Virus record (IMG/VR): IMGVR_UViG_3300050821_007680
DNA length: 64,000 bases
Reading direction: 5' to 3' (one strand)
Origin: an uncultured virus (IMG/VR IMGVR_UViG_3300050821_007680)
Lineage: Duplodnaviria; Heunggongvirae; Uroviricota; Caudoviricetes
The first letter of the stretch is position 1, and each line of letters begins with the position of its first letter. The notes beneath the pieces were generated by a model, which saw nothing but the letters and a program-made list of their open reading frames with translations, was not told where the DNA came from and did no database searches. Of the stretch, positions 11,088 through 56,612 are shown in pieces. A program made the position numbers and the translations under genes.

Positions 11088-11359
11088 AATTTATAACTGA
11101 GCAGCCCGAACGACAATCCCTTACCGATACCGAAAAGCTAATGTCAAACCGCCTGTCAACACAAGTAACATTTTTGCCGGGCAGCTATGATAAGCGTTTT
11201 TGTTCAGGATTGCCTTTAAATGGCAAATATACTGAACGGCAAATTGCCTATATTCATAAATGTTTTCATAAATACCGTAGACAGATTAAGGATTACGAAA
11301 CCATAAAACAACGACTTGCTATGAATGAAAAGCTTATGCCTAATTTTAGAGGGGAATGA
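11084..11359 (+). CDS. hypothetical protein
   Basis: TFLPGSYDKRF...KYRRQI; coupled overlaps. Confidence 0.7.
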   Translation: MKFITEQPERQSLTDTEKLMSNRLSTQVTFLPGSYDKRFCSGLPLNGKYTERQIAYIHKCFHKYRRQIKDYETIKQRLAMNEKLMPNFRGE

Positions 11360-11925
11360 GCTATAGTATTATTTACGCCGATCCGCCGTGGGCGTATAAA
11401 GTTTGGAGTAAAAAGGGAAACGGAAGATCCGCCGAGTCTCATTATTTAACGATGAAAGATGTGTCTATTATTGATATTTCCAAAATAGCAAATAAGAATT
11501 GCGTATTATTTATGTGGGCAACATTCCCATGTTTACAGGAGGCTATTGAATTAGGTAAGAAGTGGGGTTTTACCTATAAAACAGTTGCCTTTACCTGGGT
11601 GAAGAAAAATAAAAAAAATAAGGCTAATTTCTTTGGAATGGGGTATTACACTCGTGCAAATGCAGAAATATGCCTGTTATTTACAAAAGGCAAGCCATTA
11701 AAAAGAATGTCAAAATCGGTTGCTCAAATTATCGAACACCCCGTTTGTGCGCATTCAGCAAAGCCAGGTATCGCACGTAAAAGAATTGTTGAATTATTTG
11801 GAGATATACCACGCATAGAACTATTTGCACGTACTCGTAATGACTTATTTGGAAATTACGAATATGACGGTTGGGATATTTTTGGCAATGAAGCCGCGGG
11901 TAATAATGTAATTATTTTGCAATGA
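11356..11925 (+). CDS. MT-A70-family DNA N6-adenine methyltransferase
   Basis: IYADPPW, LFMWAT, FTWVK, GYYTRANAE, HSAKP, IELFAR. Confidence 0.93.
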   Translation: MSYSIIYADPPWAYKVWSKKGNGRSAESHYLTMKDVSIIDISKIANKNCVLFMWATFPCLQEAIELGKKWGFTYKTVAFTWVKKNKKNKANFFGMGYYTRANAEICLLFTKGKPLKRMSKSVAQIIEHPVCAHSAKPGIARKRIVELFGDIPRIELFARTRNDLFGNYEYDGWDIFGNEAAGNNVIILQ

Positions 11926-12131: not shown

Positions 12132-13174
12132 AAGATAGTATATTCACTAAAGATAAAGGTACTATTTTTAGCTGCTTTGCTTGTGGAGGTGGCTCTACGA
12201 TGGGTTATAAGCTTGCTGGATTTGACGTTATTGGATGCAATGAGATCGACCCCAAAATGATGAAATGTTATATCGAAAATCACCATCCGAAATACTCGTT
12301 TTTAGAAGATATAAGAACTTTTAAGGCACGTAAAGATTTGCCGGAAGAATTATACCACCTGGATATATTGGATGGATCTCCGCCATGCAGTTCGTTTTCA
12401 ATAGCCGGTAATCGTGAAAAAGACTGGGGGAAAGAAAAGGTTTTTTCAGAAGGGCAAAAACTACAGGTTTTAGATACTTTGTTTTTTGACTTTATAGATT
12501 TGGCGAAAGAACTACAGCCCAAAATTGTAATTGCCGAAAACGTACAAGGGTTATTGCAAGGAAATGCCTTTGCCTATGTTCATAAAATTTACAGGCAATT
12601 TGAAGATGCAGGATATATTGTACAACACTTTTTATTGGATGCTTCAAAAATGGGTGTACCACAAAGGCGTAAACGCGTGTTCTTTATTTGCTTGCGGAAG
12701 GATTTATTGCCTAAATTGGCAACCTTTGATTTGTTTGGAAAAATACCTAAGTTGGATTTGATGTTTAGGGAAAAAATGATCCCAACATCTGAATTTAACG
12801 ATTATTTAGGTATGCCAATTACAGAACATGCTTTAAAAGCATGGAATAGCAGAAAGCCGCATCATACAAAAATTAGTCAATCCAAAAAAGATGCAGGAAT
12901 GAAACAAAACGATTTTAACTGTAAATTCATTAAGTCAAAACAACCACATTCAACATTACTAGCAAATAGGTATCATTCTCATATTCATTATGATAAACCT
13001 ATTTATATCAGTAGAAATGAATTTCTACTTGGTTCATCATTTCCCTTAGATTATAAAATGGTGAATTTGCCATTTTATTATGTTCCCGGCATGTCAGTAC
13101 CCCCTGTCATGATTGCCCAAATAGCAACACGTATTTACGATCAATGGTTATGCTTGTTAAAAGATGAAAAATAG
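12110..13174 (+). CDS. DNA cytosine-5 methyltransferase (start uncertain; motif I lies upstream of the first ATG at 12200)
   Basis: In-frame FSCFACGGGSTMG, GSPPC, AENV, GVPQRRKRVF, GMSVPP. Confidence 0.88.
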   Translation: MDAHWILKDSIFTKDKGTIFSCFACGGGSTMGYKLAGFDVIGCNEIDPKMMKCYIENHHPKYSFLEDIRTFKARKDLPEELYHLDILDGSPPCSSFSIAGNREKDWGKEKVFSEGQKLQVLDTLFFDFIDLAKELQPKIVIAENVQGLLQGNAFAYVHKIYRQFEDAGYIVQHFLLDASKMGVPQRRKRVFFICLRKDLLPKLATFDLFGKIPKLDLMFREKMIPTSEFNDYLGMPITEHALKAWNSRKPHHTKISQSKKDAGMKQNDFNCKFIKSKQPHSTLLANRYHSHIHYDKPIYISRNEFLLGSSFPLDYKMVNLPFYYVPGMSVPPVMIAQIATRIYDQWLCLLKDEK

Positions 13175-13253
13175 TTATGAACAGATGAGGGAAATTCGGT
13201 AAGTTTTATTATATTTAAAACCCGGTTCAGCGCACGCTTGCCAGCTCATTTTG

Positions 13254-13367
13254 AAGTGACTTTTTGTATTGGATAAAAAAAGTTACTTTTGTGTTAGTTA
13301 AAAAGATTTTAACAAATCCCGGCAGGTTTAAGGTTGCTCCAATCAACCACCTGTACCGGGCTTTTTT
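13254..13367 (+). promoter_or_regulatory. Two-hairpin leader RNA with complementary loops, ending in a terminator-like hairpin
   Basis: Loop ATTGGA (13268-73) is the reverse complement of loop TCCAAT (13338-43); T6 tail. Confidence 0.7.
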
Positions 13368-13426
13368 ATGCGAACTCGGCGGAATCAAACCGCTGTCGGC
13401 GGCAATTAAAACCCTACTATTCATAT

Positions 13427-14398
13427 ATGTCCCTATCCGATCTTAAATTCGTAAAACAGCAAGCCAATATAGTTGAGGTTATCGGCCATTTTGTTCCAAT
13501 AAAAAAGAAGGGAGTTGAATATGTCGGCATGTCGCCATTTTCAAATGAACGCACACCTTCTTTTTATGTCAATCCAGTTAAGAACATATTTAAATGCTTT
13601 TCAAGCGGAGAAAGTGGGGATGTTATAGATTTTGTTGTGAAACATAAGAGTATATCACAGCGAGAGGCTATACAATGGATACGGGATTTTTACAACATGC
13701 CGCCGAAAGATAATGAATGGCGATTTATCCCGCCGCCGCCGCGTCCTATCTCGTATATTCCCTATAGCACCTTTTCAAAAACAATAGATACCGGGCATAA
13801 AAATTATTTCCGCGATTGGTTGGGTCGCGTCCTTGACCCGGTTGCGGCCTGGGGTTTATTGCAAGCATACAAGGTTGGAACATCTAAGCATTGGCCCGGT
13901 GCCTGTATATTTTGGCAGGTTGATTTACAAGGCCGGATAAGATCGGGTAAGATTATGGTTTATAATCCCGAAACGGGCAAGCGCATCCGCTCTCCCGAAC
14001 CGTTAATTACATGGGTGCATAAGGCAGCTAAATTGCAAAATTTTAATCTTTCAATTTGCCTTTTTGGTGAACACCTGCTAAATACGTCCCCGCCAGCTAA
14101 AACGGTTTGTATTGTAGAGTCTGAAAAATCAGCAATCCTTGCAGCTGCTATTTATCCAAAATTTATTTGGCTTGCTTCGGGATCATTAACTAATTTATCT
14201 TTTGAGCGGTGTAAATGTCTTTCCGGACGAAATATTAGGCTTTATCCTGACGTTGGCGGTGAAATTCAATGGGAAGAAAAAAGAAAGCAGTTAGCCGAAC
14301 TCATACCTAATGCTTCTTGGGAGTTGCACCCATTAACCGGCAACACATTCCCAAAGGGATATGATTTATGTGATTACATTTTAGATAATTGTTTATGA
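13427..14398 (+). CDS. DNA primase (CHC2-type Zn-finger domain plus DUF6371/TOPRIM-like domain)
   Basis: SPFSNERTPSF..FKCFSSGESGD, FWQVD..G.IRSGKIM.Y, LFGEHL, VESEKSA, YPD, DLCD. Confidence 0.88.
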   Translation: MSLSDLKFVKQQANIVEVIGHFVPIKKKGVEYVGMSPFSNERTPSFYVNPVKNIFKCFSSGESGDVIDFVVKHKSISQREAIQWIRDFYNMPPKDNEWRFIPPPPRPISYIPYSTFSKTIDTGHKNYFRDWLGRVLDPVAAWGLLQAYKVGTSKHWPGACIFWQVDLQGRIRSGKIMVYNPETGKRIRSPEPLITWVHKAAKLQNFNLSICLFGEHLLNTSPPAKTVCIVESEKSAILAAAIYPKFIWLASGSLTNLSFERCKCLSGRNIRLYPDVGGEIQWEEKRKQLAELIPNASWELHPLTGNTFPKGYDLCDYILDNCL

Positions 14399-15837
14399 CG
14401 GCACAAACACTGGGAATAACACCATATCCCGATCAAATTGAATTTACGAATAAGATAATATCTAAATTAGCGGACGGTTATATGAGGGTTTGCGCACAGT
14501 TGGCCACTGGAGGCGGCAAGACGGTAGTTTTTTCTTATCTAATTTCCCGTTACATCGCAAAGTCACCCTCCGCAAAAATATGCATACTTGTTCATCGCAC
14601 CGAATTGGAGGCACAAACAAAGCGTATATTGCGTGAATTTGGGTTAAATGGCGTTCGCGTTGAAATGGTCGAAACTTTTAATAATCAATTAAAAAAACAT
14701 GCCGAATCAATGAGGTATGATATGTTGATAGTAGACGAATGCCATATAGCTAATCACTTTAAAGTTATAACTCATTTTAAGGAATTACAACCCGAATGCC
14801 TGGTGCTGGGGTTTTCGGCCACGCCAATTGCCGCATCAAAGAAAACGCCGCTTAAATCGTTTTTTCAAACCATTGTAGTTGGAACTGAAATTAACAAGTT
14901 AATTTCTATGAAGCGGCTTTGCCCCGCTATACACTATTCGCCAACTACCGAACCTATCGGTAAAATCGGCATGTCTGGCGGCGATTATAATCTCGCTGCT
15001 ATGGGGATTGAGTTTTCAAAGCCAAGATTGGTTGAGGCTATTGTCGATGCCTATAGCAAATATGCGGCTGGTAAAAAATGCCTGATATTTAATACAACTA
15101 TTGAGCATTCAAATTTGGTTAATGAGGCATTTAGAAACGCCGGGTATACGAATACACGCAGCATTGACAGTAAATCGGTTACCGATGAAATACGCTCAGA
15201 AACATTTCGCTGGCTCCGTACTACGCCTGGTGCTATTCTATCTAACGTTGGAATAGCCACAACAGGCTTTGACGACCCGTCAATTGAAGCGATTATTTTT
15301 AATCGTAAAACGAAGTCATTGCCGCTTTGGCTACAATGTTGTGGCCGGGGTGCGCGGGTAAGTCCTGATCCTAATATTGATAAGCCTTACTTTCTCATTA
15401 TTGATTTAGGTGATAATATTGCCGGTGAGGGTTTTGGCCATTGGAATGAGCGTCACGATTGGGAACAATATTTCTTTCATCCAGATACAGCCCGCGAAGG
15501 GGTTGCGCCAATGAAAAAATGTCCTGAATGTGATGCGCGGATATATATGAGCTCAACTGAATGCCGTTGGTGCGGCCATTTAATGCCGCGAAAGACTGTT
15601 TATACTGATATGGTATTATCACTCTCTATTTTGCCCGAAAAAGGTATTAAGCGCAATAGCCACGATGCGCTAATGAAGGCTATTGAATTTGCCGCTGAAC
15701 AGGTTCGAAAACAACGGGTGACGTATAATGAAAAGCGGGAATTAATGTTTTATGCTTTTCAGGAACTTTATAAGCGTAGTAGTTTTGAGCCACGCGATCA
15801 TATTATTTCTCACTTGGTGTCTGTTTATGGAAAATAA
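14395..15837 (+). CDS. Superfamily 2 DExH helicase (RadD/YejH-like) with a C-terminal Zn ribbon
   Basis: TGGGKT, DECH, SATP, TTGFD, QCCGRGAR, CPEC..CRWC. Confidence 0.92.
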   Translation: MTAQTLGITPYPDQIEFTNKIISKLADGYMRVCAQLATGGGKTVVFSYLISRYIAKSPSAKICILVHRTELEAQTKRILREFGLNGVRVEMVETFNNQLKKHAESMRYDMLIVDECHIANHFKVITHFKELQPECLVLGFSATPIAASKKTPLKSFFQTIVVGTEINKLISMKRLCPAIHYSPTTEPIGKIGMSGGDYNLAAMGIEFSKPRLVEAIVDAYSKYAAGKKCLIFNTTIEHSNLVNEAFRNAGYTNTRSIDSKSVTDEIRSETFRWLRTTPGAILSNVGIATTGFDDPSIEAIIFNRKTKSLPLWLQCCGRGARVSPDPNIDKPYFLIIDLGDNIAGEGFGHWNERHDWEQYFFHPDTAREGVAPMKKCPECDARIYMSSTECRWCGHLMPRKTVYTDMVLSLSILPEKGIKRNSHDALMKAIEFAAEQVRKQRVTYNEKRELMFYAFQELYKRSSFEPRDHIISHLVSVYGK

Positions 15838-15858
15838 TTTTGTATATTTAAATGCAAA

Positions 15859-15959
15859 AAACATATCAAATCTATGCCGTAGGACGCGTATATTTGATGT
15901 GTTTAGGTTTATAATTAAATTGCCCGGTCGCCCGTCCTACTTTAGCGCCGGGCTTTTTT
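15859..15959 (+). promoter_or_regulatory. Two-hairpin leader RNA with complementary loops, ending in a terminator-like hairpin
   Basis: Loop GTAGGAC (15879-85) is the reverse complement of loop GTCCTAC (15934-40); T6 tail. Confidence 0.75.
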
Positions 15960-15998
15960 ACCTCTAATAATTATGTGTGAACCTAATGTTATTGTTTT

Positions 15999-17459
15999 AT
16001 GAGTCAAAAGTTAACAATTGCTCATATTGCGGCCGAGCGTCAGTTTAAACATACAACTTTATACAAGTCAAAAGCTAATGGCGGATTTGAATGGGATTTA
16101 CCCAATCTTCATTTCTTTTATACAGAACGGGGATATTTTATTTATCGAACATCTATTGACCGATTCGTTCCGATAAGAGTAATTGATAATATAGTTAAGA
16201 TAGCGGGTAAAAAGGAGTTGGTCGATGAAATTCTTAATTTCCTTTTAAATATTGATGAATGCCCCCCACATATACACCAATTTGCATTAAAAGAAATATC
16301 AAAAGCTACTTCCGATGATTTTCTTATCACATTGCCTGAAAAACAGGTAGAATTTAGAAAGGATCGGAAAGACGCTATACAACTTTATTTTCAAAATTGT
16401 ATAGTAAAAATAACAGCAGACAAAGTCACCGAGCACCCATATACCGATCTCAATGGCTTTATTTGGGAAAGTCAGATATTGCCAAGAGAGTATAAAGCCC
16501 AGCAAATAAATCCATCCGCTAATTTTTCAACATTTATTTCCAATATAGCAAATAATGATCAATCCAGGGTTAATGCGCTTTGTGCTGCTTTTGGTTTTTA
16601 TCTTCATAATTATAAAGATGCTGATTATTGCCCGGCCGTCATTTTAAACGATGAAATTATATCGGATAACCCGGAGGGGGGCACCGGTAAGAGTTTGTTT
16701 TTTGAAGCCATATCATATTTTATAAAAACTGAAATTTTTGACGGTGAACTTTTTTCTTTTGAGAAGGGATTTTTATATCAACGAATTAAGCCCGATACCA
16801 GATTGGTTTTTTTCGATGATACTAAAAAAGGATTTAAATTTGAAAAACTTAAGAGCTTTCTAACTGGAGGAGTAACAACTGAAAAAAAGGGAAAAGATGA
16901 AATTTACATTCCATTTATAGATTCCCCAAAAGTTGGAATAGCGACGAATTACGCCATTAATAATTCTGGTAACTCATTAGAACGTCGAAGCCTCGAGCTT
17001 GAAATAAGTCAATATTATAATAAAAAACGTAAACCTAAACACGAATTCGGGCATATGATGTTTACTGGCTGGGACCAGGCAGGGAAAGAGTGGATACAAT
17101 TTGATAATTATGCTATTCGCTGTTGTCAGTTATTTCTTTCGCATGGTCTTATTGAGCAGGTTTTAATAAACTTACCAGAAAAAAAATTACACTCACAAAC
17201 AAACTCTCAATTTCTTGAATTCATGGAGGATTTTAAATTTGAATATGAAATTTCAAAAAAAGGGATGCTGGATCAGTTTTTAGCTTATTGCCCAAAATAT
17301 AAAAACGCAGATTGGTTGACAGTTAATTTTTTCACTAAGTGGGTAACGATTTATTGTGACTTTCATAAAATATCACTTGACACTACCGGCCGTGACAAAT
17401 CAGGAAGCATCAGGGTATATAAGTTTGATAACTTCCCCATTACTGTCCCGGTTTTCTGA
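15999..17459 (+). CDS. Replicative P-loop helicase (SF3/D5-like)
   Basis: GGTGKS Walker A, VFFDD Walker B, IATN, SLERR. Confidence 0.85.
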   Translation: MSQKLTIAHIAAERQFKHTTLYKSKANGGFEWDLPNLHFFYTERGYFIYRTSIDRFVPIRVIDNIVKIAGKKELVDEILNFLLNIDECPPHIHQFALKEISKATSDDFLITLPEKQVEFRKDRKDAIQLYFQNCIVKITADKVTEHPYTDLNGFIWESQILPREYKAQQINPSANFSTFISNIANNDQSRVNALCAAFGFYLHNYKDADYCPAVILNDEIISDNPEGGTGKSLFFEAISYFIKTEIFDGELFSFEKGFLYQRIKPDTRLVFFDDTKKGFKFEKLKSFLTGGVTTEKKGKDEIYIPFIDSPKVGIATNYAINNSGNSLERRSLELEISQYYNKKRKPKHEFGHMMFTGWDQAGKEWIQFDNYAIRCCQLFLSHGLIEQVLINLPEKKLHSQTNSQFLEFMEDFKFEYEISKKGMLDQFLAYCPKYKNADWLTVNFFTKWVTIYCDFHKISLDTTGRDKSGSIRVYKFDNFPITVPVF

Positions 17460-17745
17460 CAAACTTATATCGATAAAATATTTGTCAGAAGGTTTGTCAG
17501 AAACTTTGTCAGAAGATTTTATGCATCAGAATGATTGAAACGCAATAAATTAACCTATCTGACAAAATTGACAAAAATAAAGCACTATTATTTATATAAT
17601 ATACTTTTTTTGCGCGAATGATATAGAATATTTGTCAGAAATGTCAGAAACGCTATAACTAACTGGATATTAACAACTTACTTCTGACAAACTTCTCTGA
17701 CAAATTTGGAGTTACCTATAAAGTTTGTCAGAAAAAATGTCAGAA
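17454..17745. repeat. Iteron array, probable replication origin
   Basis: 11 copies of the TGTCAGA core (mostly TTTGTCAGAA) in both orientations around an AT-rich tract, directly after the helicase gene. Confidence 0.85.
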
Positions 17746-17784
17746 AGAATGTTTAAACATATATTAATTTAAGACATAAAAATT

Positions 17785-20778: not shown

Positions 20779-20902
20779 AAAACCGCCGCCAATTTTGGCT
20801 ATCCATACGACCGGTAGGGAAGTGTACATTGAACCGCAAATATAATTCGACACTTATATTTGGCTGGTCTGTTTGTTTGAGGGTGTTTGGGAGGGATGTG
20901 TT

Positions 20903-21640
20903 ATGAGCCTTATCATCCAGTGTATCTACGCCACAAAGGACAATAAAAAGCTTCCTATCGTAAAACAGTGTATTAAGTCGCTCATGGCGACGGTGGATTT
21001 GAATAAACACCGCTGGGTAATTGTGAATAACTCGTGTGACATGGAGACGCAGGGGTATTTAGATGCGCTTTCACATCACATGAATATCACTATTCACCAC
21101 TTGCCGGAAAACGTCGGTACGGCGCGGGGGATAAATATCGGGTTGCGGACAAGGCAGCCGGGCGAAATGTGCATCAAATGCGACGATGACCTGACATGGT
21201 CGGTATCCGGGTGGGTTGAACAACTCGAAAAGTATTGCAAGGGTAATATTGGTATTTTAGGATTGAAGCGTGACGATATTTGGCAACGGACCGACCATGA
21301 GAATTTGAATTACCGGACTAAAATGGAAGGGAAGTTGGAGATATGTCCCGATATTATGGGAACGTGCACGGCTTATAACCCGGCGATGCTGGATAAAGTA
21401 GGACTGCTTACGCAGCCGGGTTTGTACGGATTTGACGATACAATATTCTCTGTTCGTTCAATAGCGGCGGGTTTTCGGAATGCCTTTTTGCCGCACATAA
21501 AAATTACTAATCTTGATAAGGGTGGCACAGAATACACCGAGTGGAAGAAGTGGGAGGCCGGGCGACGATTGGTTGAGGCAGGGGAATATATGGAAATGAT
21601 TAAAAACGGGATAATAAGTTATTTTTATGATGGAGATTAG
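20903..21640 (+). CDS. Glycosyltransferase family 2-like (GT-A)
   Basis: VNNS.D, ENVGTARGINIG, KCDDD, YGFDD..FS.R..AAG. Confidence 0.88.
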   Translation: MSLIIQCIYATKDNKKLPIVKQCIKSLMATVDLNKHRWVIVNNSCDMETQGYLDALSHHMNITIHHLPENVGTARGINIGLRTRQPGEMCIKCDDDLTWSVSGWVEQLEKYCKGNIGILGLKRDDIWQRTDHENLNYRTKMEGKLEICPDIMGTCTAYNPAMLDKVGLLTQPGLYGFDDTIFSVRSIAAGFRNAFLPHIKITNLDKGGTEYTEWKKWEAGRRLVEAGEYMEMIKNGIISYFYDGD

Positions 21641-22289
21641 TAAAACGACAACTATATTAGCTTATACAGCAGAACCCAAAAGGTATCTTATCGAAGGAGA
21701 TTCGGGCGAATACGAATTTTTAACCGAAGCGGTCGAACTGAGTAAAGATGTGCCCGGTATGTGCATAGAAATTGGCTTGCGTCGTGGATTGGGAACTAAA
21801 ACCATTATTGATGCAGTGCGCCAATATTGCCCTGCTAAAATAATTGTTGCAGTCGACCCATACGGATCAATATTGTATAAACCCCGTGACCACATGCCTG
21901 AATGCCGATTAGATTATACCAACCAGATGAAAGCTGAAACACTGTCGGCGATATGGGCGTATGTGGCAGAAAACCCGGTCAGGTTTGATTATTATCCCAT
22001 GACTGACGCGGAGTATTTTGAAAGGTTTTGGGATTGCGTGCCACTATACGATGTTTTTACAAGTGAAGGTAATAAATATTCAGTAGTTCACCTTGACGGC
22101 CCGCATGGTTTAACCGAAGTAAACCATGAAATTGATTGGTTTGCAGAAAGAATGTTGCCGGGCTCTATCCTGGTAATTGATGATATTACGCCGGATTTTA
22201 TACCAATCGAAAAGGTAGAAGAACACATGGGCGATAGGTTTGAGTTAGTTAAGAAGGGGATTAAAAAGGGAATATGGAGAAGAAAGTAG
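21627..22289 (+). CDS. Class I SAM-dependent methyltransferase (Methyltransf_24/TylF-like)
   Basis: IEIGLRRG.GT, VDPY, VHLDGPH, PGSILVIDD. Confidence 0.85.
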   Translation: MMEISKTTTILAYTAEPKRYLIEGDSGEYEFLTEAVELSKDVPGMCIEIGLRRGLGTKTIIDAVRQYCPAKIIVAVDPYGSILYKPRDHMPECRLDYTNQMKAETLSAIWAYVAENPVRFDYYPMTDAEYFERFWDCVPLYDVFTSEGNKYSVVHLDGPHGLTEVNHEIDWFAERMLPGSILVIDDITPDFIPIEKVEEHMGDRFELVKKGIKKGIWRRK

Positions 22290-22392
22290 AAAATAAGTCC
22301 GCATGGCATAAGTTTAATAGGTATCTTAATGACCATATTGGCGTTATAATGGTTTGGTATTTTTTGGTTCAGTTAATACACTTCATTTTAAA

Positions 22393-23043
22393 ATGCTTAA
22401 AGTAATCACCGTAATTTCAAATACCGAAGAACCCGGATTTAAACTATTAGGCGAATCGTTAGTAAAACATGGTTGGGATACTACCGCATTAGCTGTTCAA
22501 TGGCGTGGATTTGGAACAAAACTTATTGCAATTTACCGATACTTACAAGACAATTTAGAAATAGACCGTTTCATTTTTTGCGACGGACACGATGTTGTGG
22601 CGCTCGGCCCTCCAGTTGAATTTGAAAGAAATTTGGAACACCCTGATAAAATGTTAGTATCAGCAGAGCGCGGATGCTGGCCACCGACAATGCAACAATA
22701 TGCAAGTTATTACGAACCATTAGAAGCACACGGATGGAACTATGTCAACAGTGGGCTGTATTATACCCCTACAAGTATTTTTATGGCTATGATGGAGCGT
22801 AACATGCCAAAATATGAATCTGACGATCAGGAATGGCTGGCAATGAACTTTTTATTTAATGACGAGGCTGAAATACGAATGGACAGGAACTGTAACGTTT
22901 TTCAATCATATAGTTTCGTTCAGGATGATGATTATATTTACCGGGAAGGAGTTTTGGTAAATGCAAAAACCTGTACAACACCATGCTTTGTGCATGGGAA
23001 TGGTCGCACAAACATGGAAAAAGTTTATAATTTAATAAAATGA
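22393..23043 (+). CDS. Glycosyltransferase of the PLOD/lysyl-hydroxylase GT-domain type
   Basis: FCDGHDV, SAERGCWP, YVNSGLY, DDQ, D.NC.VFQ, HGNG. Confidence 0.82.
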   Translation: MLKVITVISNTEEPGFKLLGESLVKHGWDTTALAVQWRGFGTKLIAIYRYLQDNLEIDRFIFCDGHDVVALGPPVEFERNLEHPDKMLVSAERGCWPPTMQQYASYYEPLEAHGWNYVNSGLYYTPTSIFMAMMERNMPKYESDDQEWLAMNFLFNDEAEIRMDRNCNVFQSYSFVQDDDYIYREGVLVNAKTCTTPCFVHGNGRTNMEKVYNLIK

Positions 23044-23744
23044 CCTTAGAAACTTTAAAATCAGAGTGGCATGATACCGAGGAATATCATAAGCACATAA
23101 ATGAGCTATTCGCTCAGTTGGTTGACGCCGACCCGGAATTAAAAGCACATCGGGATTTTGTGCAAAACAATGTATTCGGCTTTGGGGAGCGATCATTTTG
23201 GTGGTTGTGGAAGCTTATTTTTGAGGGACTGCCCGACAACGCCAGGATGCTTGAAATAGGGCTATTTAAGGGTGCGACGGTATCTCTATGGAGATTGTTA
23301 AGCCCGACCGCAGATATCGCCGCCATAAGCCCCATGGATGGCGCCGGGCTTGAATGGAAAGACGATGACTATCGGCAGCATGTAAAAACCATACACGAGC
23401 GCTTTAATCAATCTTATCCCAAAATTTTCGAGGGATTGTCTACCGACAGAGGTATAAAGGCGATGTTTGGTATGGAATATCGCTACGGTTTGGATTTGCT
23501 ATACATTGACGGCTCACATGAGTATGCTGATGTAAAGTTAGATTTTGGATGGTATGCACCGTATGTAAAATCGGGTGGCTTTTTGGTTGTTGACGACTGC
23601 TGCTGTGACTTACATGAACCATTTGGTTACTTTCAAGGGATATCTGATGTTCAAAAAGCATTCGACGAATATATGTTAGAGCATAGTGACAAGTGGGAAT
23701 TTGTATTTAATGTAGTTCACCTCCGGGTAATGAGAAAACTATGA
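23040..23744 (+). CDS. Class I SAM-dependent methyltransferase (Methyltransf_24)
   Basis: LEIGLFKG, LYIDGSHEY..V..D, GGFLVVDD. Confidence 0.87.
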   Translation: MTLETLKSEWHDTEEYHKHINELFAQLVDADPELKAHRDFVQNNVFGFGERSFWWLWKLIFEGLPDNARMLEIGLFKGATVSLWRLLSPTADIAAISPMDGAGLEWKDDDYRQHVKTIHERFNQSYPKIFEGLSTDRGIKAMFGMEYRYGLDLLYIDGSHEYADVKLDFGWYAPYVKSGGFLVVDDCCCDLHEPFGYFQGISDVQKAFDEYMLEHSDKWEFVFNVVHLRVMRKL

Positions 23745-24712
23745 GCATAAAACGCATAATATATTTCGATCATTGGCAAAGCGCAACAGAATACTACCGA
23801 TTAATGCCACTGGACTATATCACAAACGAGTCGTTTACCATTACAAGGTCAACGGAACGGGAGATACAGAGCCACCTGCTAAACCGATACGACGTAGTTA
23901 TTATTTCCAGGCCCTCATCGGAAGCCCATTTGAACCTTATAAGGCTGGCTAAAGACTTGCATATGAAGGTAATTGGCGATTATGATGATGATACCCTGCA
24001 TGTGCCCGAAACCAACCCAATGTATGGCACTTATGAGAACGATAAGCGACACACATTGAAATGTTTAGCGTTATTGGATGAGATTTGGGTAGCTACAGAG
24101 GGTATAAAGCAGTCATTCCGATTATTCAATAAGAATATTCATGTGATACCAAATTCGCATAATGACACGGTGTTCCCGGTGGAGCGCAAGATGCCATTCG
24201 GGGCAAAGAAGCGCATCATGTGGCGTGGCGGCGGAAGTCATATTGGAGATATTTATCAGCCCGGCACGGCAGAATGGATCGTGAAAACAATAAATAGCAA
24301 TAAGAAGTGGGATTTTTACTGGCTTGGTCAGAAGTTTGAATGGATAGAGTACAGGGTTAAGCAGGGCAACTTCTTCCATAACCCAGGTGGCAGCACGGTA
24401 CAGTTTTACAAAATGATACACGAAATGAACCCGCAGGTATTTTGGTATCCATTGACGGATAATTTGTTCAACCGCAGCAAGAGTGCGTGTTCGTGGCTGG
24501 AGGCAACCTACTCGGGTGCGGCGTATTTCGGAAAGGTGGCGTTCCCGGAATTTCAAAAGCCGGGCATAAAACAATTGGCCGAACTGCCGTATATGCTTAA
24601 ACACCCCTACGAATTGGAAAAAATGAACACTGAAAGTTGGGAATTTATTTCCGATGAATTACTTTTGAGTAAGATAAATTTATTAAGAGAACAAAGATTA
24701 TTGGCTATATGA
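23741..24712 (+). CDS. Glycosyltransferase, GT-B/GT4-like
   Basis: YYRL.P, DYDDD, VIPN, WRGGGSH..D, FNRSKS..WLEA. Confidence 0.8.
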   Translation: MSIKRIIYFDHWQSATEYYRLMPLDYITNESFTITRSTEREIQSHLLNRYDVVIISRPSSEAHLNLIRLAKDLHMKVIGDYDDDTLHVPETNPMYGTYENDKRHTLKCLALLDEIWVATEGIKQSFRLFNKNIHVIPNSHNDTVFPVERKMPFGAKKRIMWRGGGSHIGDIYQPGTAEWIVKTINSNKKWDFYWLGQKFEWIEYRVKQGNFFHNPGGSTVQFYKMIHEMNPQVFWYPLTDNLFNRSKSACSWLEATYSGAAYFGKVAFPEFQKPGIKQLAELPYMLKHPYELEKMNTESWEFISDELLLSKINLLREQRLLAI

Positions 24713-25647
24713 CACCATCCACCGGAAATATCCTTGTAAAATTCGACCATGACAGGTCATCAACCCTTGTAAAACAAGACAACGGGCTATTTGTTCCCGA
24801 GCGTTACGTAATAGAGGAGGGCGACGAAGACGCAGATACCGCATGGGGTGTAACCACAGACCGTAAGATGATAAACCCACAGGTGATTGATATTCTTTCG
24901 GGAGAACATAAGAGCAAACGGGCATTTGTACATTATGGTGCTTTTGAGGTGTGTAAATGGGTTGATGAAGAATCGGCGGTAATACCCGAAAAAATGATAC
25001 TATTCTTTGTTGACCCGATACAATGCGTTTCGGGGACATATTTAGGGGAAGAAGTATTTGGGGAACTGCCAAAAACGGCCAGCGGTATATATCTTACCCC
25101 GCAACTGGAAACAAAAGAGGGGGTGAAGGTGTGCATCACGCACGTGCCAGATAACGCACACCCAGTGGTACAGGTCGGTACGGTGGTTATAACGGTTGAC
25201 GCGTTTCAATATGACCTGATATACGAAGGGAAGAAATATATTAAAGTAGACCAGCGCGAAATTGTGGGAGTTGAAACAAGCGATGGATATGTACCCGTTG
25301 GCAAAACTATTCTGGTCGAATACCTGCCGGATGCCGCATTGGCAGAACGGGTCGCCGAAAATGATAAACGCCGGGCACAGCGCGATTATATTGATAAGCA
25401 CTTTATTCATATATCGGAAGCCTACACCAAGGGGCTTGACCCGGCGTACCTTGATGTACCGGAGCCAAAAACAACGTATGCCAGGGTGCTGTCGGTTGGT
25501 GAGGATGTGCAGCAGGTGGAAACAGGAGATAAGGTGCTTGTTCAGCGTAATTACGGGTGTTTATTGCCAAATAAGCAATGGATCATCAATGCAGATATAG
25601 CGTTGGCTGTAATTAAAGAGAATATTCTGATACCCGTTGGGGAGTAA
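24709..25647 (+). CDS. Co-chaperonin-like protein with three tandem GroES-like domains
   Basis: P..GNILVK..GLFVP; KTASGIYL..VQVG.VV..EGKKY..EIVGV; PVGKTILVE..VLSVGEDV.QVETGDKVL. Confidence 0.7.
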   Translation: MTPSTGNILVKFDHDRSSTLVKQDNGLFVPERYVIEEGDEDADTAWGVTTDRKMINPQVIDILSGEHKSKRAFVHYGAFEVCKWVDEESAVIPEKMILFFVDPIQCVSGTYLGEEVFGELPKTASGIYLTPQLETKEGVKVCITHVPDNAHPVVQVGTVVITVDAFQYDLIYEGKKYIKVDQREIVGVETSDGYVPVGKTILVEYLPDAALAERVAENDKRRAQRDYIDKHFIHISEAYTKGLDPAYLDVPEPKTTYARVLSVGEDVQQVETGDKVLVQRNYGCLLPNKQWIINADIALAVIKENILIPVGE

Positions 25648-25649
25648 CT

Positions 25650-26339
25650 ATGCGCCGCAAATTTGAAACATACCCAGAATTAATGGCAGAGTACAGGAGG
25701 CTCAAATGTGAACTCGGCGCGATAAAAAATAAAAACGAAAGGTTAAAAAAGAAATACGAAATAATAGAACAAAAGGCGGAGTCATTTGACAACATTCATA
25801 ACGAGTATGTTTTTATAGACAAAAAACCGGATTATTTTTTTTCTTTTTCCGGGCACGCGCTGTTCAGGCAGTTTTATCTTCGCAATGGACTGACTGCCGC
25901 CCAAGCTGAATTATTAATAATTATCAGCTATAAGGGGGTGTTTTTGAGAGGTGATTTTAGGTTTTATAATAGGGATTACTTTAAGCTATCTGTTATAAAA
26001 TTAATAGAAACCCTAATTGAGCAGCGTTACGTTATGAATATCATGGTTCCGGGCAAAGCGCACAAAAAAAGGAATGGGTATGTGCTGACGCAAAAAGGAA
26101 AAGACCTTGAGGCTGATTACGAACAGTACTATGATAAAAAAATGGATGAGTTAAGAAGTGGGCGCATCACACCCGCTAATTTTCAGGATGGGGCGTATTT
26201 CAGGAAGGTTTTTGTTAGCAGGTACGAAAGGCGCATAGAGCAGGGCGGCGGTATGCTTATAAGGGGCGGTATCATGACAGGATGGAAGGAGTCGCCACCG
26301 ATTTGGAAGCATGCGGATGAAATGGATAAAGGAGAATAA
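25650..26339 (+). CDS. Winged-helix (MarR-like) domain protein
   Basis: GLTAAQAELL...LIEQRYV...YVLTQKGK. Confidence 0.55.
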   Translation: MRRKFETYPELMAEYRRLKCELGAIKNKNERLKKKYEIIEQKAESFDNIHNEYVFIDKKPDYFFSFSGHALFRQFYLRNGLTAAQAELLIIISYKGVFLRGDFRFYNRDYFKLSVIKLIETLIEQRYVMNIMVPGKAHKKRNGYVLTQKGKDLEADYEQYYDKKMDELRSGRITPANFQDGAYFRKVFVSRYERRIEQGGGMLIRGGIMTGWKESPPIWKHADEMDKGE

Positions 26340-55156: not shown

Positions 55157-55975
55157 ATGCCTACGTCAGCACAAGTCCAAACCAGCCTATTAACCGCACA
55201 ACTCAAAGCGGCCAACCTTACGCTGACAAACATTCTTGCTTTACAGGCGGGCGCACTGAGTGCGAACTGGAAGTATATATTTAAGGCGCAAAGGGGCATA
55301 AATATTATTCAGAACAAATATAATCAGGGCGACCTATCATCTGTTACCTTTAAAACCGCCTATTCGTGTTTAACATCGTTTATAGGTAATTATACAGGCG
55401 GCACCATTGACCCTAACGCGCAAAATCCGGGTACTGTTATCAATATTACAAATCCCGGTGCTACGCCGGTACTGGTAGAATTAAATTTCCCAAAAGGTTC
55501 ACCAAACCCAATTGTTATATCAAGCTGGCAGGCGATATACTCCCCAATTTTAGGCAACTTCCCATCAATCCAAGTGTCTACACTCATACCGGACGCTATA
55601 AGCACGTTTAAGACACTTGTTCCCGGAAGTGGTGGTATTAACGGAACATATTACGTTAACCTTGCTGGCGGCAGCGGAAGTGGCGCCAGCGCCTTAATAA
55701 CCATTGCTGGTAATGTTGTGACATCCGTAACCCTTGATAAAACCGGTTCAGCCTACGCCGTAAACGATGTCCTCACCGGCACATTCGGCAGCATATCAGG
55801 TTTCAGCATCACTGTAGCGTCGATAGGGGCGACATACACGCCGTTTACAGCGGGTGCGGTGAAGGTGTATGACCAGGCGACTTCCTCGTTGCTCCAGTAT
55901 CTGTATATTGATGATCCTGATATAGCTAACCCCCTCCTTACCGGCGATGCTATTCGGGTGTTGATGAAGCCGTAG
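55157..55975 (+). CDS. Putative structural protein with one Gly-rich inserted domain
   Basis: GGSGSGASALITIAGNVVTSVT..GSAY..NDVL, same pattern as in 35964-37382. Confidence 0.65.
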   Translation: MPTSAQVQTSLLTAQLKAANLTLTNILALQAGALSANWKYIFKAQRGINIIQNKYNQGDLSSVTFKTAYSCLTSFIGNYTGGTIDPNAQNPGTVINITNPGATPVLVELNFPKGSPNPIVISSWQAIYSPILGNFPSIQVSTLIPDAISTFKTLVPGSGGINGTYYVNLAGGSGSGASALITIAGNVVTSVTLDKTGSAYAVNDVLTGTFGSISGFSITVASIGATYTPFTAGAVKVYDQATSSLLQYLYIDDPDIANPLLTGDAIRVLMKP

Positions 55976-56612
55976 AAAAGAGAGTTGGAATTTCTGTAAT
56001 ATTACCCCATTGTTCCGCCATGGCATTTGCGATACCTTGAAATGTTTTACTTCTTTCTTTAGCGCTATCCCATGCCTTAAATATCGGCAATTCTGATTTT
56101 TTACGTGTCCCGTTTTTTAATAACCCCCCTTGTGTTGAATTACTTGTATAATGATATGTTGGCTCGACAATATTGGTAGGCATTAATAGAGGTAGCCCTT
56201 TTAACCACAAGCAAGTTCTCTTTTTAAACGGGTCGCCAAATTGGTATGGGTTTATTATCTGATCCGGTTTTCTATAAACCCTTGACATTATACCCGTCGG
56301 ATTTTCAATTGCTATTTTACTGCATGTATTATTTACGAATAACATAAAGAAATCAATCGCTGATTGCTGTCTGCCGTCTAATTGTTTTTGTTTCCAACCG
56401 GGCGCGCCGGCTGCTGATAAATGCGTACATGGCGGGAAAGCTATAATCATACCCCATTGCTGTTTCAACAACTCGGTTACATCTTTTTGTAGGTGCCATT
56501 CGGGGTGACCGCCACTACACGGCAATATATCACATGAATATGCTTCATGGCCCCGCTTCCTAAACTCAATAGTCACGACCTGACTTTCTTCACAAGCTAT
56601 TAATATTTTCAT
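55950..56612 (-). CDS. Phage DNA cytosine methyltransferase-like protein
   Basis: ILIACEESQ, FPPCTHL, IENP, KRTCLWLKGLP, RSKTF.GIA.AMAEQW. Confidence 0.85.
   Translation of the reverse strand: MKILIACEESQVVTIEFRKRGHEAYSCDILPCSGGHPEWHLQKDVTELLKQQWGMIIAFPPCTHLSAAGAPGWKQKQLDGRQQSAIDFFMLFVNNTCSKIAIENPTGIMSRVYRKPDQIINPYQFGDPFKKRTCLWLKGLPLLMPTNIVEPTYHYTSNSTQGGLLKNGTRKKSELPIFKAWDSAKERSKTFQGIANAMAEQWGNITEIPTLFSTASSTPE

Follow-up and report, generated by a model that had tools for sequence, protein, structure and literature searches.

An attenuator-like RNA element with complementary hairpin loops recurs upstream of replication genes in a tailed phage and its relatives

The leader that precedes the primase gene of an uncultured tailed phage can fold into two hairpins with complementary loops, the second of which is followed by a run of T. 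The question arises as to whether these loops pair (or 'kiss') in a transcript and, if they do, what the pairing would mean for the genes downstream. The window that we analysed consists of the first 64,000 bases of a virus record of 69,243 bases, whose first 50 bases are repeated at 69,045. According to ORF family matches, it encodes a terminase and a portal protein; its replication block is made of a methylase, a CHC2/DUF6371 primase, a ResIII helicase and a DUF5906 helicase-like gene. The ORFs that were scanned with family profiles include no integrase. The source names of the primase relatives and the TAnnTTTG-type promoter boxes point to a host among the Bacteroidota. The genes next to the leaders discussed here are the following.

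13427..14398, + strand: primase with CHC2 zinc finger and DUF6371 (Pfam PF01807 and PF19898; DNA primase in PHROG)
14395..15837, + strand: ResIII/DEAD superfamily-2 helicase (family matches), overlapping the primase stop
15999..17459, + strand: DUF5906 helicase-like gene (family match), downstream of the second leader, E2

The zinc finger of the primase matches PDB entries 1d0q and 2au3. As the start of the ResIII gene overlaps the primase stop, these two genes likely share one operon. Directly after the DUF5906 gene, at 17452-17747 of the window, a TGTCAGAA core is repeated about ten times, in direct and inverted orientation, and forms a candidate iteron-like origin; the origin of the phage-plasmid P4 has repeats as well.

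The leader before the primase (13210-13367), hereafter E1, and the short ORF behind it are organised as follows.

13210..13217, + strand: upstream promoter box P1, TATATTTA, which departs from the -7 consensus TAnnTTTG at one base
13218..13252, + strand: 5' extension, a candidate second antiterminator, capable of pairing with both arms of B
13253..13289, + strand: hairpin A, 13 bp (arms 13254-65/13277-88 plus 13253/13289)
13266-76, + strand: loop of hairpin A, GTATTGGATAA, with the kissing segment ATTGGA at 13268-73
13284..13291, + strand: box of the predicted nested promoter P2, TACTTTTG, which fits TAnnTTTG without mismatch, in the 3' arm of hairpin A
13297..13313, + strand: small AU-rich spacer hairpin (fold)
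13318..13360, + strand: terminator-like hairpin B, three 5-bp tiers, -18.1 kcal/mol
13337-43, + strand: loop of hairpin B, CTCCAAT, with the kissing segment TCCAAT at 13338-43
13362-67, + strand: U tract, hairpin B being followed by a C and then T6
13368..13409, + strand: mini ORF of 13 codons right behind the U tract, where homologous leaders begin their gene

A preliminary description had listed most of these parts, and all those it named are present where it placed them, base for base; its observation that ATTGGA and TCCAAT are exact reverse complements, able to form 6 bp, is confirmed. The arms and loop that it gave for hairpin B are real too, but the dashes by which it divided the arms skip a TTAA bulge (13328-31) and a TA bulge (13354-55). 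It had missed the AU hairpin at 13297-313, the TACTTTTG box at 13284-91 and the 5' stretch at 13218-52. Hairpin A includes a single G-U pair, at 13258/13284, and the first T of the nested box belongs to this wobble. From consensus matches, transcripts are predicted to start at about 13220-13222 from P1 and at A13296 from P2. The 5' extension matters for the predicted fold, the pair probability of the terminator being 0.04-0.05 for an RNA starting at 13218-20 and 0.88 for one starting at 13222, an effect that is matched by 2.4% of 500 shuffles.

Taken alone, the loop match of E1 is not significant, because a match of at least 6 bases is found in about 1.5% of permuted terminator/upstream pairs and the genome contains 29 terminator-like hairpins. 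Among these 29, only E1 and E2 reach a loop match of at least 6. A stock terminator scan, whose rule admits no bulge and loops of at most 8, lists neither of them. E2 is the copy that the preliminary description had reported, with other loop sequences, before the helicase gene; it is real (15843-959 for the whole element) and its loops do differ, but it precedes the DUF5906 gene (15999) and not the ResIII gene (14395).

15835..15850, + strand: upstream promoter boxes of E2, TAATTTTG at 15835-42 and TATATTTA at 15843-50
15859..15904, + strand: hairpin A of E2, with the kissing segment GTAGGACG at 15879-86
15889-96, + strand: box of the predicted nested promoter P2 of E2, TATATTTG, which fits TAnnTTTG without mismatch, in the 3' arm of hairpin A; start predicted at G15901
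15922..15959, + strand: hairpin B of E2, -15.3 kcal/mol, 13-nt loop, CGTCCTAC at 15933-40, U tract at 15954-59
15973-16002, + strand: mini ORF of 9 codons after the U tract of E2, overlapping the start of the DUF5906 gene

The match between GTAGGACG and CGTCCTAC amounts to 8 bp, a length attained by 0.04% of permuted pairs, and the loops of E1 and E2 do not pair with each other. In a related locus (L013), a gene of 85 amino acids occupies the place of the mini ORF of E2. Beyond the window, the record holds a third module of similar build.

68088-68190 of the record (G000:C1; L409): TATCTTTA box, then a long hairpin whose 3' arm holds TAGTTTTG, a small spacer hairpin and a terminator

This module precedes a gene of 117 amino acids that has no Pfam match. 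It has no loop-loop match, its loop resembling the 5' arm of the terminator; a nested box is thus found without a loop match, so P2 need not serve the kiss. A little further on, the tip of a terminator-like hairpin (G000:C1 68601-68640, also outside the window) carries ATTGGA, the segment of E1 loop A. This may be chance: the hexamer occurs 31 times on the same strand.

To judge the loop match at the level of a class, we gathered loci around relatives of the primase and of both helicases, and scanned 407 loci and the genome, on both strands, for hairpin-plus-U-tract sites, blind to loop sequence. Among the 1,640 unique sites obtained (unique sequences, not independent lineages, with one site called twice), promoter-anchored hairpins with a loop match of at least 7 numbered 32, against 1.5 expected from permutation, and those with a match of at least 8 numbered 20, against 0.13. 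All 32 lie on the strand of the replication genes. For the class, the loop match is far beyond chance.

Curation of 50 detector hits, from which we removed 6 that were poor or duplicated, 8 that were near-identical and 1 that failed refolding, left 35 elements. These contain 34 distinct pairing sequences, 6-10 bases long, and the distance from loop to loop is confined to 38-64 nt, though the script looked 115 nt upstream. Where elements reside together (3 genomes), their loops cross-match over at most 5 bases. Two shapes recur, one with a long AU-rich A and a short B, the other with a short A and a long B that contains a GGAU/UGAA internal loop. This symmetric internal loop is conserved in the terminator stem of a short-A subgroup (L002 1288, L003 3335, L006 3784, L043 4773, L266 903 and L270 1208), and it is possible that it forms a contact site for a protein or for tertiary structure.

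The class has no conserved primary sequence. RNAalifold, applied to a MAFFT alignment of 11 leaders whose sequences do not align by letters, gave no consensus pairs. A sequence-only model recovered only its training members in 100 sources, E1 not among them; a gapped-pattern scan of viral contigs returned only the leader's own copy, so that neither search yielded a non-identical homologue of the exact E1 leader. The same kind of scan over 120 loci returned three known members and two terminators without loop match, and a further pattern scan two known members and one unrelated match. A second detector, working with forced-open loops, gave 30 unique hits where two controls gave 14 and 20, failed to find either E1 or E2, and was dropped.

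How regularly does the element accompany these genes? We defined as close relatives the 23 contigs with a primase at least 45% identical over its full length or a helicase at least 46% identical, the genome's own copy being excluded. The element is present in 19 of them, 17 found by the script and 2 by eye (L022, L024); in the available DNA of the other 4, one of which is an incomplete contig, it was not found. It stands directly before the primase in five of nine full-length primase relatives (L019-L027). In another set of 23 loci, drawn from five annotated records of cultured phages, from prophages in bacterial genomes and from the far end of this genome, it was found in none.

Comparison of close pairs reveals paired changes in the loops: three pairs between E2 and L013 (GTAGGACG/CGTCCTAC versus GTGGAAAG/CTTTCCAC, with terminator arms 96% identical), one pair between L267 and L268, and one between L287 and L289. 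In E2/L013, in L375/L380 and in weaker pairs the loops have changed more quickly than the stems, whereas most close pairs show no such difference. Moreover, G-U pairs number 77 in sense folds and 34 in antisense folds (p = 5e-5), which suggests that the element acts as a sense-strand RNA. The proposal of a cis-regulatory RNA at replication genes therefore holds insofar as the class enrichment and the G-U bias argue for a cis-acting element with conserved loop-loop pairing on a terminator-like hairpin. That it gates replication genes is borne out as to position, since it does lie upstream of such genes, but it also occurs before nucleases and a methylase and is not specific to primases: the 32 downstream proteins scanned comprise 7 of primase type, 7 helicases, 5 nucleases, 1 methylase and 12 without assignment, a bias towards replication that is partly built in, the loci having been chosen around replication genes.

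Excerpts of PMC9723704 place the Bacteroidota -7 box, TAnnTTTG, at -12 to -5 from the start, and report that TAnnTTGY, too, defines genuine promoters. Several members have an upstream box that fits this second type, and a sense TAnnTTT[GA] is found upstream of hairpin A in 25 of the 35 elements, against 7.0 in shuffles. Consensus matches and folds together give the layout of an intrinsic attenuator, namely a promoter, a GC-rich hairpin with its U tract, and a gene. A perfect TAnnTTTG also lies in the 3' arm of hairpin A in 8 of the 19 long-A elements, E1 and E2 included, and L267 offers a ninth case. In shuffles of the same windows such a nested box appears 0.34 times on average and at most 4 times (n = 20,000). 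In seven of the eight, exactly two bases separate it from the kissing segment, and its nn pair varies among five forms. Opposite the box, the stem has imperfections in five of the eight, and a purine occupies the predicted +1 in eight of nine. We predict from this that the box inside hairpin A is a second promoter. The RNA running from it to the U tract would measure 57-72 nt, and in folding of the RNA from the P2 start, B forms with a probability of 1.0.

In Bacteroidota sigma-A promoters, the -33 TTG element sits about 19 bases upstream of the -7 box. Upstream of the nested box, a TTG is found at 17 nt in E1 and at 20 or 23 nt in L007, and in none of the other six. The nested box is restricted to 8 of the 35 elements overall, its carriers other than E1 belonging mostly to one related group, and it is missing from the homologous leaders L026, L021 and L014. 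A tie between nested P2 and a weak P1 was rejected (1/8 versus 12/27, p = 0.21). On the opposite strand, TAnnTTTG is not enriched (2 of 35, for 2.8 expected), nor is a relaxed box (7 of 35, for 11.0).

In which direction would the kiss, which likely forms while the RNA is being made, act on termination? Excerpts of PMC11611296 describe how, in the guanidine-IV riboswitch (GGAM-1 or mepA motif), the single tested example with this arrangement, a kissing loop hinders completion of the terminator during a short window of transcription. In the 35 elements, hairpin B alone is stable (-10.6 to -26.5 kcal/mol) and is followed by 5-8 T (at least 5 T in the 8 bases after every B, mean 6.4), and so would need no help to stop the polymerase. 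For these two reasons we take the kiss to oppose termination; it would be a built-in partial antiterminator that rations transcription into the primase and helicase genes, a reading to which we give about as much credence as doubt. Several features lean the same way: the stem of B is interrupted in 28 of the 35, such that an apical unit could fold separately from the base; the match extends into the paired tip of B in 12 of the 35; and longer matches go with shorter loop-to-U distances (rho = -0.43, p = 0.01, a correlation that is partly definitional and ignores kinship). Kiss strength does not track terminator strength over the 35 elements (rho = -0.24, p = 0.17), and linker length falls, not rises, with stem length (rho = -0.43), a trend that folding artefacts can produce. 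The kiss of E1, at -4.7 kcal/mol, is the weakest of the 35, which counts against an antiterminator role; in the folding model, the 13218-52 extension could back it up.

Under this antiterminator scheme, the polymerase would start at P1 or read in from upstream, and hairpin A would fold. Loop B would leave the polymerase about 47 bases later (64 in E1) and pair with loop A while the base of B is still open, as in guanidine-IV but with no ligand, so that a fraction of the polymerases would read through while the rest would stop at the U tract. Transcripts from P2, which lack loop A, would stop at B and yield the 57-72 nt RNA with a free loop B. This short RNA, or terminated full leaders, would then catch loop A of new transcripts in trans before these have made their own loop B, and read-through would drop as genome copies and short RNAs accumulate, the different loop letters keeping E1 and E2 independent. 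We put forward such a decoying of loop A by terminated RNA as tentative and somewhat unlikely. Since loop A is exposed about 47 bases before loop B exists, the element's own terminated product would be the simplest regulator, and would exert a negative feedback on replication. Indirect pointers to an action in trans are the distinct loops of co-resident elements and the fast loop change in two close pairs, though not in most. The scheme as a whole, that is, a replication feedback free of protein and ligand in which a kissing antiterminator is jammed in trans by a nested-promoter RNA, and in which loop letters serve as address codes for independent gates and maybe for incompatibility or superinfection groups in Bacteroidota phages, we consider doubtful.

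The sign of the effect could also be the opposite, a serious rival reading, if a rather unlikely one. The kiss would then help a slow, large-looped terminator to close, or stabilise the stopped RNA, with A-bearing transcripts shut off and expression coming from leaky nested-promoter transcripts or by way of a phage antiterminator. The loops of B are indeed large (7-16 nt in unconstrained folds of most elements), the match costs B little or nothing in 23 of the 35, where both hairpins and the kiss can coexist, and the unpaired purines seen 5' of the kissing helix in several loops would suit a finished kissing complex. The leaders of T4 homing endonucleases reportedly contain nested late promoters, with a resembling logic. 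Against this stand the stability of B by itself, with its run of T and its certain formation in folds from the P2 start, and the 27 of 35 elements that lack a nested box and for which some other release would be required. The ORFs that were scanned include no antiterminator family. A control of translation, modelled on the rep pseudoknots of IncI-type plasmids, appears improbable: the base of B would block ribosome loading and the kiss would loosen B. A start codon lies within about 60 bases of the element in curated members and, in most, 6-25 bases from the base of B, and mini ORFs directly follow both U tracts, as such a control would have it; however, a U tract follows every B, the primase of E1 starts about 60 bases past it, and the antisense promoter is not enriched.

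Two further readings set the downstream gene or the RNA aside. In one, which we also hold to be improbable, the terminated RNA would itself matter, as a compact stable molecule with a job elsewhere, and the downstream gene would be served by leak. The size of the promoter-to-terminator unit, about 100-150 nt, agrees with this, and the GGAU/UGAA internal loop of the short-A subgroup could be a protein site, but a product with a job of its own is hard to reconcile with the lack of conserved primary sequence, with start codons so near, and with the presence of a third matching site within 150 nt in only 1 of the 35. In the other, a structure at the DNA level (a single-stranded origin or operator palindromes), or simply chance, would account for the pattern; we find this very improbable. 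The neighbourhood of primase and helicase genes, the overlap of hairpin A with a promoter box, as in an operator, and a 6-bp match that for E1 alone falls within chance all speak for it, and they are outweighed in our view by the sense-strand G-U bias, the promoter before and the U tract after, the class-level enrichment, and the candidate iteron-like origin situated elsewhere, at 17452-17747.

Among known systems, the guanidine-IV riboswitch shares with our element a 5' hairpin whose loop is complementary to that of the terminator. Its highly conserved loop nucleotides form the ligand pocket for guanidine (excerpts of PMC7736828), whereas 34 pairing sequences are found in our 35 elements; it stands before guanidine-export genes, and ours before replication and nuclease genes; and some of our members have a nested promoter box. 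We reject membership of this class on the ligand pocket, the Rfam match and the downstream genes. By analogy, the proposed mechanism resembles the guanidine-IV expression platform.

In P4 immunity, according to excerpts of PMC4825925, premature termination in the leader controls the primase-helicase operon and is caused by a short RNA that derives from this leader and pairs with it. Premature leader termination before a replication operon and a short RNA, both of them predicted in our case, are common to the two systems. The CI RNA of P4 is released by cleavage of the transcript and has two flanking targets (seqA and seqC), whereas here loops match one to one. A third copy turns up within 150 nt in just one of the 35 elements and the c4/CI-type Rfam models gave no match, which speaks against the P4 CI or P1 c4 type. 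In three prophage leaders (L029 ~560-750, L030 ~1030-1220 and L059 ~830-1025), a promoter box is accompanied by a short 5' hairpin and by a long hairpin, lacking a good U tract, that encloses a 10-base complement; these are possibly a related or c4-like element.

In Gifsy-1, again according to PMC4825925, the terminated short form of IsrK targets in trans the longer read-through transcript from the same locus; it activates translation by strand invasion, and a loop-loop helix on a terminator is not part of that account. Promoter-stem-loop (PeSL) cassettes are small promoter and terminator units repeated in T4-type phage genomes, for which the abstract of PMC2839356 describes no loop-loop pairing; here copies differ, and the terminator comes after the promoter and directly before a gene. 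Loop recognition controls a replication gene in pT181 and in IncI RepZ, and loop letters set specificity there, but both require an antisense RNA from the opposite strand. We rejected a cis-antisense attenuator of this type, opposite-strand promoters not being enriched across the 35 leaders.

The preliminary description did not recognise a named RNA family, and we concur: Rfam gives no match at gathering score in the window, only sub-threshold unrelated matches for E1 and E2, and 15 related loci yield only 2 tRNAs. No description of the element was found in the full-text literature, outside which most subscription papers lie, and the parts of the motif survey PMC10690425 that were covered contain no matching entry. 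Judged from sequence and its comparison, the element is a real and uncatalogued attenuator-like RNA element, whose function we infer.

The control element covaries strongly and is found repeatedly in front of primases, helicases and homing nucleases in phages of the Bacteroidota, whose gene regulation is little known. It sets the mechanism of a kissing loop acting against a terminator apart from ligand binding, and provides dozens of natural variants, orthogonal and of about 100 bases each. If the trans step were true, it would represent a new form of replication or immunity control, and would supply orthogonal attenuators ready for use in the engineering of Bacteroidota.

Other parts of the genome deserve mention. 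Four DNA methyltransferase-like genes are spread over its 69 kb (1749-2351, 11356-11925, 12200-13174 and 55950-56612). At 6-206 of the window, inside the terminal repeat region, a low-complexity tandem repeat reads as runs of alanine, arginine and isoleucine. Finally, a run of glycosyltransferase and methyltransferase genes at 20873-26339, upstream of the terminase, is likely a cassette for glycosylation of the virion or of DNA.
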